Shown here: in pieces, positions 7,261 through 45,543 of the stretch
How the letters are laid out: every line of letters begins with the position of its first letter
Numbering within the stretch: the first letter of the stretch is position 1
Source of the DNA: Vicinamibacterales bacterium
Lineage (GTDB): Bacteria; Acidobacteriota; Vicinamibacteria; Vicinamibacterales; SCN-69-37
NCBI GenBank assembly: GCA_040902895.1
Contig: JBBDWL010000056.1
Location: 16,482-80,481, forward strand
Length of the DNA stretch: 64,000 bases
Direction of reading: 5' to 3'
Notes under the pieces: model-generated
Database searches by the model: none
What the model saw: only the letters and a program-made list of their open reading frames with translations
Told to the model about the DNA's origin: nothing
Position numbers and translations under genes: made by a program

Positions 7261-7947
7261 ATGTTTACGAGTATTCAGGTCATCGGGCGGGGGCGTCTCG
7301 GCTCCGCGCTGGTCGAGCGGCTGCAGGCGCGGGGTCATGACGTGCGAGCGACGCCGGCGGAGCTTGTGGTGCTGTGTGTGCCAGACGCCGCGATCTCCGG
7401 CGTCGCGCAGGCGCTGGCTGAAGGGCCCTGGATCTGTCACATGAGTGGCGCGACACCGCTTGCTGCCTGCGCTCCGCACACCAAGCGGTTCAGCGTGCAT
7501 CCGCTGCAGACATTCCGGCGCGGTGGCGGCGCGGAACAGTTCGACGGAGCCTGGGCTGCAGTGACCGGCGAAAGTGCTGAGGCGCGCTCGAAGGCCGGCT
7601 GGCTTGCGGAAACGCTCGGGCTCACGTCATTCGCGCTCGACGATGAGATGCGCGGGCTGTATCACGCGGGCGCGGCGTTCGCGTCAAACTATCTGGTGAC
7701 GCTGCATGACGCCGCCGCGCGTGCGCTCGAAGCTGCGGGCGCGCCGCCCGAAGCGCTGATGCCACTGATGCGACGCACGATGGACAACGGATTCGAGCTG
7801 ACGGGACCAATCTCGCGCGGCGACTGGACGACCGTCGACGCGCACCTGCAGGCGCTCGCGCAACATCTGCCGGATCTCGAGCCGCTGTATCGCTCGCTCG
7901 CGGAGGCCACGGACCGGCGTCCGCCTCAGGACGGCCATCCGCTGTGA
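7261..7947 (+). CDS. Rossmann-fold plus DUF2520 domain protein (candidate ketopantoate reductase)
   Basis: N-terminal IQVIGRGRLGSAL dinucleotide-binding motif. The C-terminal YHAGAAFASNYLVTL...TGPISRGDW resembles DUF2520. The stop overlaps the panB start. Confidence 0.6.
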   Translation: MFTSIQVIGRGRLGSALVERLQARGHDVRATPAELVVLCVPDAAISGVAQALAEGPWICHMSGATPLAACAPHTKRFSVHPLQTFRRGGGAEQFDGAWAAVTGESAEARSKAGWLAETLGLTSFALDDEMRGLYHAGAAFASNYLVTLHDAAARALEAAGAPPEALMPLMRRTMDNGFELTGPISRGDWTTVDAHLQALAQHLPDLEPLYRSLAEATDRRPPQDGHPL

Positions 7948-39239: not shown

Positions 39240-39467
39240 ATGCAGCGCAGAGCCAAGGTGTTCCTGAACAATCGCAGCCAGGCCGTGCGGTTGCCGAAGG
39301 AGTTCCAGTTCACGACCGGCGAGGTTTTCATTCGCAAAGAGGGTGAGGATGTGATCCTGTCGCCCCGGCCAACGGATTGGGGACCCTATCTCGAGAGCGG
39401 TCCCGTTGCGTCCGACGCGTTCATGGAGAACGTCGAGGATCTGCCCGTACAGGAGCGCGAGCCCTGA
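39240..39467 (+). CDS. vapB: AbrB/SpoVT-type VapB antitoxin
   Basis: [24 protein letters not shown] is the VapB AbrB-fold signature. AAGGAGGG Shine-Dalgarno upstream. Confidence 0.88.
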   Translation: MQRRAKVFLNNRSQAVRLPKEFQFTTGEVFIRKEGEDVILSPRPTDWGPYLESGPVASDAFMENVEDLPVQEREP

Positions 39468-39904
39468 TGGCCCGCTACATGCTGGACACGGATATCTGTT
39501 CGTACATCATGAAGCGTTCGCACCCAACGGTGTTGAAGCGGCTGCGGGCGATTCCCGTGACAGATGTCAGTATTTCAGTCATCAGCCAATCAGCACTGCT
39601 CTACGGCGTTGAAGTCTCGCCGCGGCGCACGCAGGATGCTGCGGCGCTCAAGGCATTTCTTCCCCACGTCGAGGTTCTCGAGTTTCCCGGTGACGCCGCG
39701 CTTCACTATGCCCAGATACGTGCTGACCTGAAAACACGTGGCCGGATGATCGGCGCCAACGATCTCTTCATCGCCGCTCACGCACGCAGTCTTGGGCTCA
39801 GGCTCGTCACCAACAACACCGCCGAGTTCGGGCGCGTGAAAGGCCTGACGCTCGAGAACTGGACGCGGGCCGTTCGTCGTTCTCGCTCAAAGGCCGACGA
39901 ATAG
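39467..39904 (+). CDS. vapC: PIN-domain VapC toxin
   Basis: Internal ATG at 39467 overlaps the vapB stop (TGATG). MARYMLDTDICSYIM...NDLFIAAHARSLGLRLVTNNTAEF contains the PIN acidic residues. Confidence 0.88.
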   Translation: MARYMLDTDICSYIMKRSHPTVLKRLRAIPVTDVSISVISQSALLYGVEVSPRRTQDAAALKAFLPHVEVLEFPGDAALHYAQIRADLKTRGRMIGANDLFIAAHARSLGLRLVTNNTAEFGRVKGLTLENWTRAVRRSRSKADE

Positions 39905-41831: not shown

Positions 41832-41921
41832 TGGCGGAGAGAGTGGGATTCGAACCCACGGTAGGGTTACCCCTACACACGCTTTCCAAGCGTGCTCCTT
41901 CAACCACTCGGACATCTCTCC
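41832..41921 (-). tRNA. tRNA-Ser (anticodon GGA), CCA encoded
   Basis: The reverse complement reads GGAGAGATGTCCGAGTGGTTGAAGGAGCACGCTTGGAAAGCGTGTGTAGGGGTAACCCTACCGTGGGTTCGAATCCCACTCTCTCCGCCA. It folds by hand into a 7-bp acceptor stem, an anticodon stem CACGC/GCGTG with loop TTGGAAA, a long variable arm, and a GTGGG-TTCGAAT-CCCAC T-arm. Confidence 0.93.
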
Positions 41922-42084: not shown

Positions 42085-42450
42085 TTAATGACTGGCCCGT
42101 CGTTTTGGACGGACAAATTCCGCGACCTCATCCTCGGTGATTCGTTCTGTCGTCTTCTCAAGCAGAAGGGCCGCAAGCTGCATCGGTTCGACGCGGACAC
42201 CCCCATGTTCGCGAACCTTCGCAGAGATCATCTCGAGGCGCTTGAGCGTGCGTGGCGCGAGTGGAACGAGCCGCCGCTCGACCCAGCGCGGGTCGGTTGG
42301 CCGCCCGCCACCGGTCGGTACGCTGAAGCGAGCCTCGATGTCCGCCAACAACTGCATCGCCCCGAAGTAGCCACCTGTGGCAGACACTTTTCCTGGACGT
42401 TCCGCTCCGAGCGCGAGGGCGATCTTGTCCATGTTCAGATGCGTCTTCAT
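42085..42450 (-). CDS. hypothetical protein (last gene of the nuclease operon)
   Basis: 121 aa: MKTHLNMDKIALALGAERPGKVSATGGYFGAMQLLADIEARF...PTDPRWVERRLVPLAPRTLKRLE. GGAGAAG Shine-Dalgarno upstream, and the start lies 3 nt after the upstream stop. Confidence 0.55.
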   Translation of the reverse strand: MKTHLNMDKIALALGAERPGKVSATGGYFGAMQLLADIEARFSVPTGGGRPTDPRWVERRLVPLAPRTLKRLEMISAKVREHGGVRVEPMQLAALLLEKTTERITEDEVAEFVRPKRRASH

Positions 42451-42453
42451 GGT

Positions 42454-42900
42454 CTACTTCTCCGCAAAGTGGCGGATAGCGAGGTACTCATCCCCGATCA
42501 CCAGGCCGATCTCGCCCTGGCGGGCATCGCGTCCCATCATCCGGCAGAAGCTCGCGAGCTCGGCGAGCTTCCGGGGATTCTGAATGTCGCCGGGCGTCGT
42601 GTAACAGTGCATGACGACGGGCTCGTCCTTGACGAGTACTCCGCCTCTTTCGTCATCACGCCAGATGCCCTTCGCCTTCGGATACGCCGTTGCCCCTCCG
42701 AAGACGCGCCCGAACATGTCCAGCGCGGCGTCGACCCATTGGTTTTGGTTCACGGCCGTCGTCCCGTCACGTTCGACGCTTGGCACGAACAGAACGACCA
42801 GGACGCTTTTGCGGCCCTCATGAAGTGCGACCCTTTGCCGTCGCGACGGCCGACGCTTCTTCGCCACACGATCAATATAGATCGTGCTTTCTCGCAACAC
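42454..42900 (-). CDS. hypothetical protein
   Basis: This is the C-terminal, protein-like part of track ORF 42454..43293 (...LVVLFVPSVERDGTTAVNQNQWVDAALDMFGRVFGGATAYPKAKGIWRDDERGGVLVKDEPVVMHCYT...). The start is uncertain (GTG 42900, TTG 42897 or GTG 42867), and the upstream part of the ORF overlaps the ERCC4 gene out of frame. Confidence 0.45.
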   Translation of the reverse strand: MLRESTIYIDRVAKKRRPSRRQRVALHEGRKSVLVVLFVPSVERDGTTAVNQNQWVDAALDMFGRVFGGATAYPKAKGIWRDDERGGVLVKDEPVVMHCYTTPGDIQNPRKLAELASFCRMMGRDARQGEIGLVIGDEYLAIRHFAEK

Positions 42901-42983
42901 AAGCGCTTCGCCCCGGCGGGTATGCGACGCGTGACGGCGCGTCTCTGGGCGAAGATGATCCGCCGGGAGCCGGACCAGCGTCG

Positions 42984-43772
42984 TCAGGAGACGACGTTGC
43001 GAATTCGTTGGGCTTTGCTCGGTCCAATACCGCGGACCTGCACCAACAGGCCGGGGTCGGCCGTGATGACACGCTCGACAGATCCGAAATGCACTAAGAG
43101 GCGGTTCGCCAGTGCCGGACCGACGCCCGGCAGCCCTTGCAGCATGTACAGTTTCCGCGATGCGAGGCGTTTCGGTTGCCGGTCGTATCGTTGGAGAACC
43201 GGGGGATTGGTTCTCGCCAGTTGCCCGGCGAGCAGTCGCAGGATGCGGAGCGAGTCTTCCGGATTGCGTGCGTGAATCACCGGAAGCCGCCACATCACCG
43301 CCAACGAAAGTACCGCGCCCTTCAGCGCGTGCGTGTGAACGTCGGGCATCGGCGCAGGCGCGGGCCCTTCGAGGAGAACGATTGGCCGGTGGGGGCTTCG
43401 CGCGAGCGCTGCCGCCTGGGGAAAGAGTCGTCCATCCACAAGCGAAGTCGCGAAATCCGCGTACGTTTTTCGTTCGATGAGGATACCGCCATCGATGAGG
43501 TAGTCACCGACGGCAAGACGCTCCATGCGAATGTCGAACTCTCCGCATCCGCGTGCGAGATCGAGCAATGCGGCGTTTCGCTCAGAACAGTCGACGCGAA
43601 GCTGCCATTGCCTCGCGACGTTCGCGACGCCGACACTCTCGGCATTTCGATCAACGGCGGAGACGCGCATCATCTGGAGGGGAAAGCCAAAGGTCCGCAG
43701 TCTGGTGAAACAATCAACGAGAGTTGCAAAGTGCCTCGGCGCTTGCGCGCCTCCGCATGACCTACCATCCAC
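42984..43772 (-). CDS. XPF/ERCC4-family nuclease with C-terminal (HhH)2 domain
   Basis: LRVDCSERNAALL...LAVGDYLIDGGILIERKTYADFATSLVDGRLFPQAAAL...IVLLEG contains the GDY...ERK...D ERCC4 active-site signature. LQGLPGVGPALANRLLVHFGSVERV...VRGIGPSKAQRI forms two helix-hairpin-helix motifs. The start is uncertain (GTG 43772 or ATG 43673). Confidence 0.8.
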   Translation of the reverse strand: MDGRSCGGAQAPRHFATLVDCFTRLRTFGFPLQMMRVSAVDRNAESVGVANVARQWQLRVDCSERNAALLDLARGCGEFDIRMERLAVGDYLIDGGILIERKTYADFATSLVDGRLFPQAAALARSPHRPIVLLEGPAPAPMPDVHTHALKGAVLSLAVMWRLPVIHARNPEDSLRILRLLAGQLARTNPPVLQRYDRQPKRLASRKLYMLQGLPGVGPALANRLLVHFGSVERVITADPGLLVQVRGIGPSKAQRIRNVVS

Positions 43773-43896
43773 GACGAACCATCAACGAGGGTCCGTTTTC
43801 CAGACGGTTGGAGTCTCATCAATGTTTAACGTGGGCTGAGAGCCAGACCCACATGACCGCACGCTCCTCCGACCTTCCCCATGAACTGTTGCCGTG

Positions 43897-44193
43897 TCAG
43901 GACAGCTCGCCAAGCGCGGCGTCGTCCTGGTCGTACGCTTCGATCGTCGTCTTCGCGTTCGTCGTCTTCAGCGCCTGTTCGAGCAGGCGAATCTCTCGCG
44001 CGACGCGCGTCACGAGACGGTCGAGCACTTTCACGTCATAAACGGGCTCCTTCACGATCTCCTTGTCGGCAGAGGCACCGTAGAAGCGCCGCTCCCGATG
44101 GGCGTTGTCGTTGCGAAGCGCCAGAAGTTCTTCGTGGCGCTTTTTCAAGGTCTTGAGCCATGCCAGCCCTTCATTGATCGTGATTTGAGCCAT
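43897..44193 (-). CDS. hypothetical protein (predicted helical, first gene of the nuclease operon)
   Basis: 98 aa: MAQITINEGLAWLKTLKKRHEELLALRNDN...VYDVKVLDRLVTRVAREIRLLEQALKTTNA. GAAGGTGA Shine-Dalgarno upstream of the ATG. Confidence 0.5.
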   Translation of the reverse strand: MAQITINEGLAWLKTLKKRHEELLALRNDNAHRERRFYGASADKEIVKEPVYDVKVLDRLVTRVAREIRLLEQALKTTNAKTTIEAYDQDDAALGELS

Positions 44194-44263
44194 CGGTTCA
44201 CCTTCGTCGCGGCCTCACAACGCGCCGACGACGACGATGGCATCGTCGTCGAACGGTTGTCAA

Positions 44264-44305
44264 ATGAGATCTGCCGCATGAGATCTGCCGCATGTGATTC
44301 TGCGG
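44264..44305. repeat. 14-nt tandem direct repeat (two perfect copies plus one degenerate) in an intergenic region
   Basis: ATGAGATCTGCCGC ATGAGATCTGCCGC ATGTGATTCTGCGG. Each perfect unit contains the AGATCT palindrome. It lies 71-112 nt upstream of the 43897..44193 start. Confidence 0.8.
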
Positions 44306-44438: not shown

Positions 44439-44702
44439 TCATCGCGAACCGAGCGCGGCTAGGTCGGAGTCGACCGACGCATAACGGACCGCCATCTCGA
44501 GAAAGAATCGCGCGTGAAAGAACGCCTCCACGATGGGCCGCGTCACCAGCGTCCAGCGATCATTGTCAGCAGTCGTGAACTCTTTGCCGGTTCCTTGGCG
44601 AACGATCTGGAGAAACCATGGATGCAGCGGACGGTCTGGAAGGAGGCCTCTGAGCTGCCGAACAATGCTGTCGGTCTGCTGCTGAAGCCAGAACACTTTC
44701 AA
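44439..44702 (-). CDS. hypothetical protein (weak call, TTG/GTG start only)
   Basis: 87-aa ORF starting 25 nt downstream of vapC. No ATG start and no recognised family, so it may be a gene fragment. Confidence 0.3.
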   Translation of the reverse strand: MKVFWLQQQTDSIVRQLRGLLPDRPLHPWFLQIVRQGTGKEFTTADNDRWTLVTRPIVEAFFHARFFLEMAVRYASVDSDLAALGSR

Positions 44703-44727: not shown

Positions 44728-45150
44728 TCAGCGGCGAGTGACCGCCCAGTCTTCCCATTTTAGTCCGGGCACGCGCGCGAACTCCTTCGCGTTGGAGGTC
44801 ACAAGTGTCGCGCCACGCCGTCGCGCTTGGCCGGCGAGAAGCACATCATAGGCCCCAATCGGTTTTCCGATCGCTTCGAGCTCGGCGCGGACCGTTCCAG
44901 CCGTGCGCGCGTCGTCCTCGTCGAACAGTGTCCACTCCAGCGGGCCGGCAAAGAACGCCTCGAGCCGCTGCGTGTTGCTGTCTTTGCGCTGGCGCTTCGC
45001 GACGCCGTACCACAGCTCGAATGCGACGATCGACGACAGCAGGATGACGCTCCTCCGAACCACCGCTCGCTGGAATCGCCGACGCACGTTGACCTCGGAG
45101 CCGTTGATCAACGCGATGCACGCGTTCGTGTCGATCAAGTACTTCGTCAT
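44728..45150 (-). CDS. vapC: PIN-domain VapC toxin
   Basis: [17 protein letters not shown]...[26 protein letters not shown]. It overlaps the vapB stop by 4 nt. Confidence 0.88.
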
Positions 45151-45386
45151 TCGAACACGTCTCGCTCGGGCGTCGGGGGCTGCTGTCGTCCTTCCGGCAT
45201 GAAGGCTTCATCCGACAATCGATCGAGTTCGGCGAACCATGCCGAGACGTCCGTGAACATCGGTTCCACGAGCAGACCTCGCCCGGCGCGGCGCACCCTG
45301 ACGCGGTCTCCCTCGAACCTGAACTCGCGCGGCAACCGCACGGCCTGGCTGCGTCCGTTCTTGAATAGCTTGGCGGTGGCGGTCAC
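45147..45386 (-). CDS. vapB: AbrB/SpoVT-type VapB antitoxin
   Basis: (V)[23 protein letters not shown]. The start was re-set to the GTG preceded by AAGGAGGAG. The track's ATG at 45410 lies inside a promoter-like direct repeat. Confidence 0.85.
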
Positions 45387-45543
45387 AGGCTCCTCCTTGA
45401 TATATACCATTAGTATATACCAATCACGTGGACCTTCCTAGACCGCACATCAGAGGAGCAGGAGCCGTCGGCATGGTCTTCGACCAGCATCCGCTCGTGA
45501 CGGCACGCCGGTAGGATTCCGCTCCCAGTGCTGCGAACTCGAC

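Follow-up and report, generated by a model that had tools for sequence, protein, structure and literature searches.

Do four small genes that are read in the same direction, one of which encodes a predicted XPF/ERCC4-type nuclease, make up a single nuclease system, or do they belong to separate units that have come to lie next to each other? This question is raised by positions 42085-44193 of a 64,000-nucleotide (nt) stretch of DNA from a Vicinamibacterales bacterium of the phylum Acidobacteriota (assembly GCA_040902895.1, contig JBBDWL010000056.1, positions 16,482 to 80,481), hereafter called the window, to which all coordinates refer. An initial annotation, made from the letters of the window alone, had read the genes as a tight operon and as a candidate novel nuclease system. 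Four open reading frames (ORFs) are found, all on the minus strand and at the positions that it listed. In the order of reading, these are A98 (98 amino acids (aa); 43897-44193), the ERCC4 ORF (262 aa counted from the first GTG; 42984-43772), C148 (148 aa in the longest ORF; 42454-42900) and D121 (121 aa; 42085-42450).

Short XPF nucleases are textbook repair enzymes of archaea and eukaryotes, and to our knowledge no bacterial member has been studied so far. We propose that the locus combines two accessory modules, each complete in itself, in a variable islet rich in toxin-antitoxin (TA) genes, and that a structured RNA acts as a leader before the nuclease gene; we assign this reading a probability of about 0.45. 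The counts given below come from several samples, namely 80 fetched genomic loci with ERCC4 relatives, whose neighbouring genes were compared, 35 genomes found with A98 as bait and 80 genomes found with C148 as bait. Individual loci are denoted by L and a number.

A predicted short XPF/Hef-type nuclease

Judged by its profile matches, its alignment to proteins in the Protein Data Bank (PDB) and its homologues, the 229-aa product of 42984-43673 (minus strand) clearly belongs to the short XPF/Hef-type ERCC4-(HhH)2 nucleases, with an ERCC4 domain followed by two helix-hairpin-helix (HhH) motifs and no helicase domain. The 262-aa ORF matches the Pfam family ERCC4 (PF02732) with 69.4 bits against a cut-off of 24 (E 3.8e-19), and its C-terminal tandem HhH region is recognised by HHH_5 (45.8 bits), by HHH_2 (34.4 bits) and, in two stretches, by PF00633 (HHH), all above cut-off. 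This C-terminal domain aligns to the HhH domain of Hef (1x2i), and the protein can be aligned end to end with the Aeropyrum pernix XPF protein (ApXPF; 2bgw/2bhn), residues 27-227 corresponding to residues 13-213 (E 7.6e-27). The NCBIfam model 'Hef nuclease' is matched over profile positions 569-775 of 781 only (E 5e-47; 160 bits against a cut-off of 610), and the 229-aa protein contains no fused N-terminal superfamily 2 (SF2) helicase domain of the Hef/FANCM type. The archaeal Xpf model of NCBIfam gave 73 bits against an equivalog cut-off of 300. The ERCC4 signature G56-D57-Y58...E67-R68-K69-T-Y-A-D73 (GDY...ERKtyaD) is intact and aligns with the ApXPF motif; among 25 ERCC4 homologues, residues D28, E31, R32, G56, D57, Y58, E67, K69 and D73 are invariant and R68 is nearly so. 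The initial annotation of a bacterial short XPF nuclease is therefore borne out by the ERCC4 match of 69 bits, the HhH families and the 2bgw alignment. Existing labels for such homologues, from JGI or the source pipelines, are ERCC4, ERCC4-type nuclease or FANCM.

The length of the protein needs to be corrected. Its homologues form 993 clusters, are typically 229-235 aa long and cover the protein from the ATG at 43673, and the true nuclease is therefore 229 aa and not 262 aa long. This ATG is not preceded by a Shine-Dalgarno (SD) sequence. The gene is often broken, by a frameshift, a split or the loss of the GDY region, in L081, L089, L035 and L104, which fits a dispensable gene.

A98 is a conserved protein preceded by a promoter-like region

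A98 and the nuclease gene are 223 nt apart and the nuclease gene and C148 116 nt apart, and the description of the locus as a tight operon did not hold up, as the first spacer is occupied by a predicted structured RNA and the second by a promoter and operator. The relatives of A98 form 560 protein clusters, of which the top 120 are 86-99% identical to it, and all named ones are called 'hypothetical protein'. Substitutions in the A98 gene fall predominantly on third codon positions (4103, compared with 887 and 318 at the other two), and between the window and L098 the 39 nucleotide differences amount to 36 synonymous codon changes and a single non-synonymous one. This bias marks A98 as a genuine protein, on which purifying selection acts very strongly.

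An AlphaFold2 (AF2) model of A98, with a predicted local distance difference test (pLDDT) score of 72, shows two helices, residues 6-39 and 54-81, which form a hairpin followed by a disordered acidic C-terminal tail. A Foldseek search with this model returned no significant match, only generic coiled-coil hairpins with E > 2, and comparison with DUF6847 and the DIP1984 family gave weak matches below threshold. PADLOC, PHROGs and NCBIfam scans of A98, C148 and D121 yielded nothing usable.

Upstream of A98 lies a promoter-like region (44229-44263, minus strand), which is conserved in all aligned loci. It consists of a -35 box TTGACA (44258-44263) followed by a perfect palindrome, CGACGACGATG-C-CATCGTCGTCG (44229-44251). 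The TTGACA box forms the left edge of the conserved unit, and the sequences farther upstream are unrelated between loci. The 17-nt core of the palindrome is the single such site in the 64-kilobase (kb) window, whether exact matches or one mismatch are counted. The LexA motif of Acidobacterium is GTTC-N7-GTTC; a LexA box was rejected as an identity for the palindrome, which is unlike this motif and unique in the window. Immediately upstream of the promoter, at 44264-44291, a 14-nt unit is perfectly duplicated in tandem (ATGAGATCTGCCGC x2), and the other aligned loci lack this duplication.

A predicted structured RNA between A98 and the nuclease gene

Conservation at the DNA level runs from A98 across the whole spacer and halts abruptly at ...CTTTCCCCTCCAG, directly before the ATG of the ERCC4 gene, and the spacer is conserved across loci even where a different gene follows. 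From covariation and strand asymmetry, we conclude that 43671-43886 (minus strand) specifies a structured non-coding RNA of about 215 nt that belongs to no Rfam family and whose 3' strand extends as far as the ERCC4 ATG. In the model, a long closing stem (P1/P1b) encloses a multi-helix junction with hairpin P2, stem P3, which itself encloses hairpin P3a with a 7-nt loop, and a hairpin with a GNRA tetraloop; the unpaired segments are highly conserved. The 3' strand of the closing stem spans the 20-25 nt ahead of the ERCC4 ATG.

RNAalifold, applied to 23 sequences, predicted 34 pairs, 13 of which show compensatory changes. Two helices were added by eye: P3, in which AUUGAUGAG/CUCGUUGAU is replaced by AUGGAUCAC/GUGAGUCGU in other loci, and P3a, in which CCGU/ACGG changes to UCCA/UGGA and GUCC/GGAC around the constant 7-nt loop. 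In the resulting model of 47 pairs and seven helices, 92% of the cells are paired, compared with 40-52% in slid controls, and double changes are seen in 18 of the 47 pairs, compared with 5-9 in slid controls and 10.1+-1.9 in column shuffles, none of 500 of which reached 18. The minimum free energy (MFE) of the element is -92.2 kcal/mol on the gene strand (z -3.46), whereas the opposite strand has a z-score of -0.84. In addition, the pairs are rich in G-U combinations, which are compatible with the gene strand only, so that the RNA has the same orientation as the genes.

A search against Rfam 15 found nothing above the gathering threshold in the window except the tRNA-Ser described below; at E<=10 there was no match inside the element, and two chance matches fell in the 5' end of the ERCC4 gene and in the A98 leader. 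A covariance model built from the element has matches solely beside A98; it never found the element beside distant ERCC4 homologues or in the tested C148 loci. The spacer was rejected as a coding sequence, as its indels are not multiples of three, its open frames differ by locus and its variation tracks pairing and not third positions. Likewise, a retron, a type III TA, a 6S RNA and an omega or bridge RNA were set aside as identities, as the locus has no reverse transcriptase, tandem repeats, rod-like fold, large nuclease or recombinase gene that would go with them. We found nothing relevant in the literature on ERCC4-associated RNA motifs or bacterial ERCC4 defence systems. The RNA holds two copies of CUCGUUGAU, at 43709-43724 and 43777-43792, and in the MFE fold of the window AUUGAUGAG pairs with the distal copy, whereas covariation favours the proximal one. 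An alternative, switching structure is possible in the lineage of the window.

The A98-RNA unit and its changing downstream gene

Which of these elements belong together? A98 and the RNA element always co-occur. To judge from the loci compared, the conserved unit in Vicinamibacterales-like Acidobacteriota is the promoter with its palindrome, A98 and the RNA, and not A98 with the ERCC4 gene. The initial annotation had placed a 98-aa gene before the nuclease. In the closest relatives, such a gene repeatedly lies upstream; its tie is to the RNA, and about half of the intact units have no ERCC4 gene. Downstream of about 30 intact A98-RNA units, an ERCC4 gene is present in about 14. It is by far the commonest gene in this position, and in most such loci it starts 0-15 nt past the last paired base of the RNA. 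The remaining intact units are followed by a Cys-rich 107-aa ORF in one lineage, by unrelated genes or by nothing on that strand. Intact units adjoin different genes from genome to genome (hyp genes, recR, IS21, and WD40 or helix-turn-helix (HTH) genes), which identifies the unit as an accessory, relocating module and not as a housekeeping operon.

These observations also bear on a different explanation, in which the nuclease is a stand-alone accessory repair enzyme, A98 and the RNA are unrelated to it (a small ribonucleoprotein (RNP), a small RNA with its chaperone or a 3' untranslated region element) and the downstream DNA is merely a recombination hot spot. We regard this as a strong alternative, though a less likely one than the reading proposed above. 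It would account for the intact units that lie ahead of a pyrroloquinoline quinone (PQQ) dehydrogenase gene, a formylglutamate amidohydrolase gene, convergent genes or no gene at all, and for ERCC4 homologues that stand alone elsewhere. It would also fit L093, L094, L097, L120 and L124, in which the Cys-rich gene takes the place of the ERCC4 gene, and L094, where a second, partial copy of A98 and RNA after the cargo genes is consistent with exchange by homologous recombination. Against it stands the predominance of ERCC4 at a distance of 0-15 nt from the RNA. Furthermore, in L106, L109 and L110 only the first ERCC4 codons are left (ATGATGCACGTTCC...), and these 5' remnants suggest that ERCC4 was probably ancestral to the A98-RNA unit and was repeatedly lost, and not that it newly arrived. 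Finally, among the internally deleted units, which are found in about 10 of the 35 A98-bait genomes, those of L117 and L127 repeatedly retain the promoter end of A98 and the last ~45 nt of the RNA, joined ahead of ERCC4.

The Cys-rich ORF of 107 aa (possibly 128 aa) starts about 80 nt past the RNA and matches no Pfam family; in some loci it is followed by DUF433/PIN TA genes. The partial copy in L094 (7985-8214) comprises residues 50-98 of A98 and the first ~68 nt of the RNA. It suggests that cargo is exchanged through recombination between A98-RNA alleles.

ERCC4 relatives and their neighbours

Among the 80 ERCC4 loci, A98 lies upstream of ERCC4 solely in the closest, Vicinamibacterales-like acidobacterial ones. 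None of A98, C148 and D121 was found beside ERCC4 relatives of about 40% identity (from Brocadia, Planctomycetota, Verrucomicrobiota, Desulfobacterales, Bacteroidales and others), whose contexts are lineage-specific. Other acidobacterial ERCC4 genes, with 50-72% identity, lie singly in mixed surroundings, in many cases beside PIN/DUF433 TA genes.

A helicase gene lies within ~1.5 kb of ERCC4 in five of the 80 loci. Four of these encode RecQ-type proteins, which carry RecQ_Zn_bind, RQC and HRDC domains in L008 and L049 and RecQ_Zn_bind only in L050 and L080, and one (L062) encodes an MrfA/Hrq1-type protein. SNF2 helicases are found at four loci: 76 nt downstream in L058, about 1 kb away on either side in L074 and ~3 kb off in L005 and L019. 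This proximity is far above what chance adjacency would give and suggests a role of the ERCC4 family in repair or recombination. The arrangement in L008, L049, L050, L062, L080, L058 and L074, which come from several phyla, resembles a 'split Hef/FANCM'.

C148 and D121 form an independent gene pair

The 116-nt spacer between ERCC4 and C148 contains a conserved promoter/operator (42868-42902, minus strand), with a -35 box TTGTGT (42897-42902), a 17-nt spacer and a -10 box TATATT (42874-42879). The -10 box is embedded in a palindrome, ACGATC-TATAT-TGATCGT (42868-42885), which lies directly ahead of the start codon. In most of the 80 C148-bait loci, from many phyla, C148 is preceded by the arrangement TTGC..-N17-CGATCTATATTGATCG with a start codon 5-12 nt beyond, and the palindrome CGATC-TATAT-TGATCG that contains the -10 box is conserved. 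The 'residues' ahead of GTG 42867 in longer gene calls are thus promoter and not protein, and C148 most likely starts at this GTG and is 137 aa long (42454-42867), shorter than the 148 or roughly 149 aa called before; apart from this and the length of the nuclease, the gene sizes of the initial annotation stand. The messenger RNA of the pair would be leaderless or nearly so, and the palindrome ACGATCTATATTGATCGT is a candidate operator for D121. The junction between the two genes is as initially described, TAG-acc-ATG with a 3-nt gap and the SD sequence GGAGAAG inside the upstream gene.

C148 homologues form more than 2000 clusters, and the protein belongs to no Pfam, PADLOC or NCBIfam family. 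The 80 genomes found with C148 as bait, with 62-92% identity, represent at least eight phyla, including Acidobacteriota, Planctomycetota, Rokubacteria, Myxococcota, Gemmatimonadota, Latescibacterota, Chloroflexota and others, and such high conservation across phyla points to frequent horizontal transfer. D121 directly follows C148, at a distance of about 3 nt, in 76 of these genomes, whereas ERCC4 is near C148 in three, all Acidobacteriota, and A98 in none. Conversely, the pair is near ERCC4 in about five of the 28 acidobacterial ERCC4 loci. In L019 / L152 (MELF01000023.1), an ERCC4 copy stands on either side of the pair, and both copies share 59% identity with the nuclease of the window.

The AF2 model of C148 (pLDDT 79, predicted template modelling (pTM) score 0.71) has an alpha-beta fold that resembles S-adenosylmethionine (SAM) lyases and CutA. 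Its top Foldseek match is the phage SAM lyase Svi3-3 (6zm9; E 2.8e-6, template modelling (TM) score 0.63, 15% identity), followed by the SAM-AMP lyase 9gab and CutA1-like trimers, with 9lqe also among the best structural matches, and a comparison with BFVD returned many uncharacterised phage proteins together with annotated SAM hydrolases. A profile search of the PDB with the C148 alignment gave no meaningful match at the sequence level. Fold comparison of the unassigned ORFs, which the initial annotation had advised, thus led to the SAM lyases for C148 and to nothing specific for A98. Residues Y62, D71/D72 and Q117-G-E119 of C148 are invariant. Svi3-3 binds SAM through residues G56, Y58, E69 and Q104-E105, a G-x-Y / Glu / Gln-Glu set (PMC7877911). 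The correspondence between the two sets, drawn from the order of residues, is loose and only suggestive. In a TA-like pair, C148 would be the candidate for the enzymatic or toxic component.

D121 (42085-42450, minus strand), directly 3' of C148, has 451 representative relatives with the consensus GGRxTDPxW..R.VPL...TL.RL..LA...G..VEP.Q.AALLLE, the C-terminal half of which has a ribbon-helix-helix (RHH)-like pattern. It has no Pfam match, and a profile search of the PDB gave no meaningful match. One relative of 205 aa (P0480) has a D121-like N-terminus fused to an Xre_MbcA_ParS_C antitoxin toxin-binding domain, which links the D121 family to RES/ParT-type antitoxins. D121 is probably a regulator or antitoxin that binds DNA. 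Elsewhere, copies of the pair have HigB, HEPN/MNT and TumE genes for neighbours. Taken together, C148 and D121 form an independent transcription unit, which is probably autoregulated and near-leaderless, and we read it most plausibly as a TA-like or regulator-enzyme cassette that came to lie beside ERCC4 in one acidobacterial lineage.

That all four genes form one tight operon for a new multi-component nuclease system would agree with their common direction, with the absence of a predicted intrinsic terminator between A98 and D121 and with the same gene order in some metagenomic contigs (L081, L085, L088). However, the A98 copy of these contigs is identical (L081, L085) or truncated (L088), so that they are probably not independent examples, and L019 and L021, which have ERCC4 and the pair, lack A98. 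With the conserved promoter/operator of the pair and the counts of three in 80 and about five in 28, we consider a four-gene system very improbable and, by co-occurrence, largely refuted. The partners are for the most part not conserved next to ERCC4 homologues, an outcome that the initial annotation had itself named as speaking against its proposal, and the ~40%-identity ERCC4 relatives do without them altogether.

The islet and its other genes

The G+C content is ~0.59-0.64 over 41.5-45.5 kb, compared with 0.66-0.73 in both flanks. At the low-coordinate edge, directly downstream of D121, ARAGORN and Rfam (tRNA, 58.6 bits) identify a tRNA-Ser(GGA) gene (41832-41921, minus strand). At the high-coordinate edge lies a VapBC module, also on the minus strand, with a MazE/AbrB-type VapB (45147-45410; Pfam MazE_antitoxin, 4e-9) and a PIN-domain VapC (44728-45150; Pfam PIN, 1.8e-16). 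A second pair of MazE-type VapB (39240-39467) and PIN-domain VapC (39467-39904) genes is located on the plus strand beyond the tRNA-Ser and a beta-lactamase-family gene, and the islet is thus bracketed by two VapBC modules. Between VapC and A98 lies an 87-aa ORF (44439-44702, minus strand) that matches no family; L003/L105 carry it with 96% conservation and L014 and L132 with 57-63%, and in L132 it comes after a truncated A98. The closest relative genome, L105, has other genes between ERCC4 and the tRNA-like stretch, among them one for a 191-aa protein with a LexA DNA-binding domain (7276-7851), which takes the position held by C148-D121 in the window. A search for terminal repeats around the A98-RNA unit gave nothing convincing.

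The TA module and lower-GC setting described at first are confirmed (VapBC at 44728-45410), as is the location of ERCC4, which varies between genomes. The accessory, TA-rich character of the islet therefore stands, whereas its assignment to defence finds no support. A search of PADLOC-DB 2.0 gave no significant match for the four proteins (best E 0.011 over 30 residues) or for ten neighbouring proteins, and a PHROG scan gave no match. A98 and C148 are absent from the viral contigs of IMG/VR, and the viral ERCC4 relatives found there share only 23-29% identity; a phage origin was rejected on these grounds.

One might nevertheless speculate that A98, the RNA and ERCC4, with or without C148-D121, provide anti-phage or anti-plasmid defence or act as a selfish addiction system, in which the nuclease would be the effector and the RNA and A98 its sensor or inhibitor. 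The patchy distribution, shifting location and frequent decay of the unit, the lower-GC islet with its TA neighbours and the horizontal transfer implied by the cross-phylum conservation of C148 would all agree with such a role. We nonetheless hold it to be quite improbable, as PADLOC and PHROG gave no match and viral contigs no close relatives, ERCC4 persists without intact A98 and RNA, which argues against an essential antidote, and the helicase neighbours in other phyla point to repair. In addition, XPF nucleases recognise structure and not sequence.

Discussion

We propose that module 1 (44263-42984), which is confined to Vicinamibacterales-like Acidobacteriota, would be one transcription unit consisting of a promoter with a palindromic operator, A98, the 215-nt RNA and, directly at the 3' end of the closing stem, the ERCC4 gene. 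The nuclease would act as a homodimer-type, structure-specific (flap/fork-type) endonuclease in DNA repair or recombination. The RNA would be its leader: as the 20-25 nt ahead of the ATG, which lacks an SD sequence, are taken up by the 3' strand of the closing stem, folding should gate translation of ERCC4. A98 might be an RNA-binding partner in this gating, and A98 and the RNA would also have a role of their own, as the pair outlasts ERCC4. Module 2 (42902-42085) would be an unrelated, horizontally spread two-gene cassette with its own -35 and -10 boxes and palindromic operator, which encodes a protein with a predicted SAM-lyase fold and an RHH-like partner, most likely as an autoregulated TA-like or regulator-enzyme pair. 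What the analysis shows directly is where the genes and the RNA begin and end, which domains the proteins have, how the RNA covaries, how often the elements occur together and that the promoters are conserved; co-transcription, translational gating, binding of A98 to the RNA, the repair function and the SAM chemistry or toxicity, like all other statements on function, are what we infer.

Several observations weigh against this reading. A98 and the RNA are intact without ERCC4 or with unrelated downstream genes in L100, L108, L115 and L118; a purely cis-regulatory role for ERCC4 is therefore insufficient, and A98 and the RNA must have a function of their own. Vice versa, ERCC4 is retained in L117, L127 and L088 despite the deletion of A98 and the greater part of the RNA, and thus has no strict need of them, and the acidobacterial ERCC4 genes of 50-72% identity have no A98-RNA unit. 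The fold of A98 is a generic coiled-coil hairpin without detectable homology to RNA-binding proteins, and the SAM-lyase assignment of C148 relies on a fold match with a TM score of 0.63 and 15% identity. Co-transcription and the boundaries of the RNA are deduced from conservation alone. Lastly, C148-D121 is found again behind ERCC4 genes with as little as 58% identity (L019, L021), and 3' remnants of ERCC4 are found upstream of C148 in L090, L091 and L144. The adjacency of nuclease and pair is thus old within the acidobacterial lineage, and some local functional link between the two modules may exist within Acidobacteriota.

On balance, we place an accessory repair-type nuclease in an RNA/protein module first, followed by the adjacency of unrelated units, then by defence or addiction, and last by a four-gene system. 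A bolder version of our proposal would make A98 and the RNA an undescribed RNP or RNA switch that gates a bacterial XPF nuclease, so that the whole would serve genome maintenance or defence as an accessory module under RNA control, and the pair of SAM-lyase-fold and RHH proteins a new TA or defence family that acts through the breakdown of SAM or another nucleotide cofactor; we think this unlikely. If C148 were to degrade SAM or a related cofactor, it would represent a new kind of chromosomal toxin or defence effector. Apart from this, the locus offers a compact example of a bacterial short XPF, a large structured RNA that is absent from Rfam, shows strong covariation and is coupled to a 98-aa protein under extreme purifying selection, and, in C148-D121, a family that has so far gone without annotation although it spans at least eight phyla and over 2000 clusters of C148, with a conserved, near-leaderless promoter/operator and a SAM-lyase-like fold. 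The attractive but wrong reading as a four-gene system is corrected.

Comparison with known systems

The RNA resembles translational riboswitches and protein-binding leaders, in which the 3' strand of P1 lies over the ribosome-binding region, in that it has a junction closed by P1, conserved unpaired segments, a GNRA tetraloop and an end at a start codon. Unlike these, it has no SD sequence to sequester and no Rfam family, and it is tied to the upstream gene and kept when the downstream gene changes or is lost.

For C148, the phage SAM lyases (Svi3-3 and the T3 SAMase) and the SAM-AMP lyase of CorA-associated type III CRISPR systems are the nearest known proteins, as they are the best structural matches of the model. 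C148 differs from the phage enzymes in that it shares no detectable sequence similarity with them, is a chromosomal bacterial protein, is paired with a regulator and is absent from IMG/VR. In C148, a Tyr that is invariant is joined by acidic residues and a Q-x-E motif, an order that roughly recalls the substrate-binding residues of Svi3-3. As a pair, C148-D121 is reminiscent of reverse-order type II TA systems (HigBA, MqsRA) with an RHH antitoxin: it consists of two small genes with a 3-nt gap and a palindrome over the -10 box, is horizontally widespread, lies among other TA genes and has a partner relative fused to Xre_MbcA_ParS_C. It departs from type II TA systems in that both proteins are outside the Pfam, NCBIfam and PADLOC families, and in that C148 has a predicted SAM-lyase/CutA fold and not a known toxin fold.

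The closest counterparts of the nuclease are A. pernix XPF (2bgw/2bhn) and the nuclease and (HhH)2 part of Hef. The window protein differs from the archaeal XPF/Hef proteins in that it is encoded in a bacterial host without PCNA, has neither a PCNA-interaction tail nor a helicase domain, stays far under the equivalog cut-offs (160 vs 610 bits for Hef, 73 vs 300 bits for archaeal Xpf) and is preceded by a structured RNA and A98, for which there is no archaeal counterpart. With its archaeal relatives, it shares the two-domain architecture, the length, the GDXnERKX3D signature and the acidic residues upstream of it.

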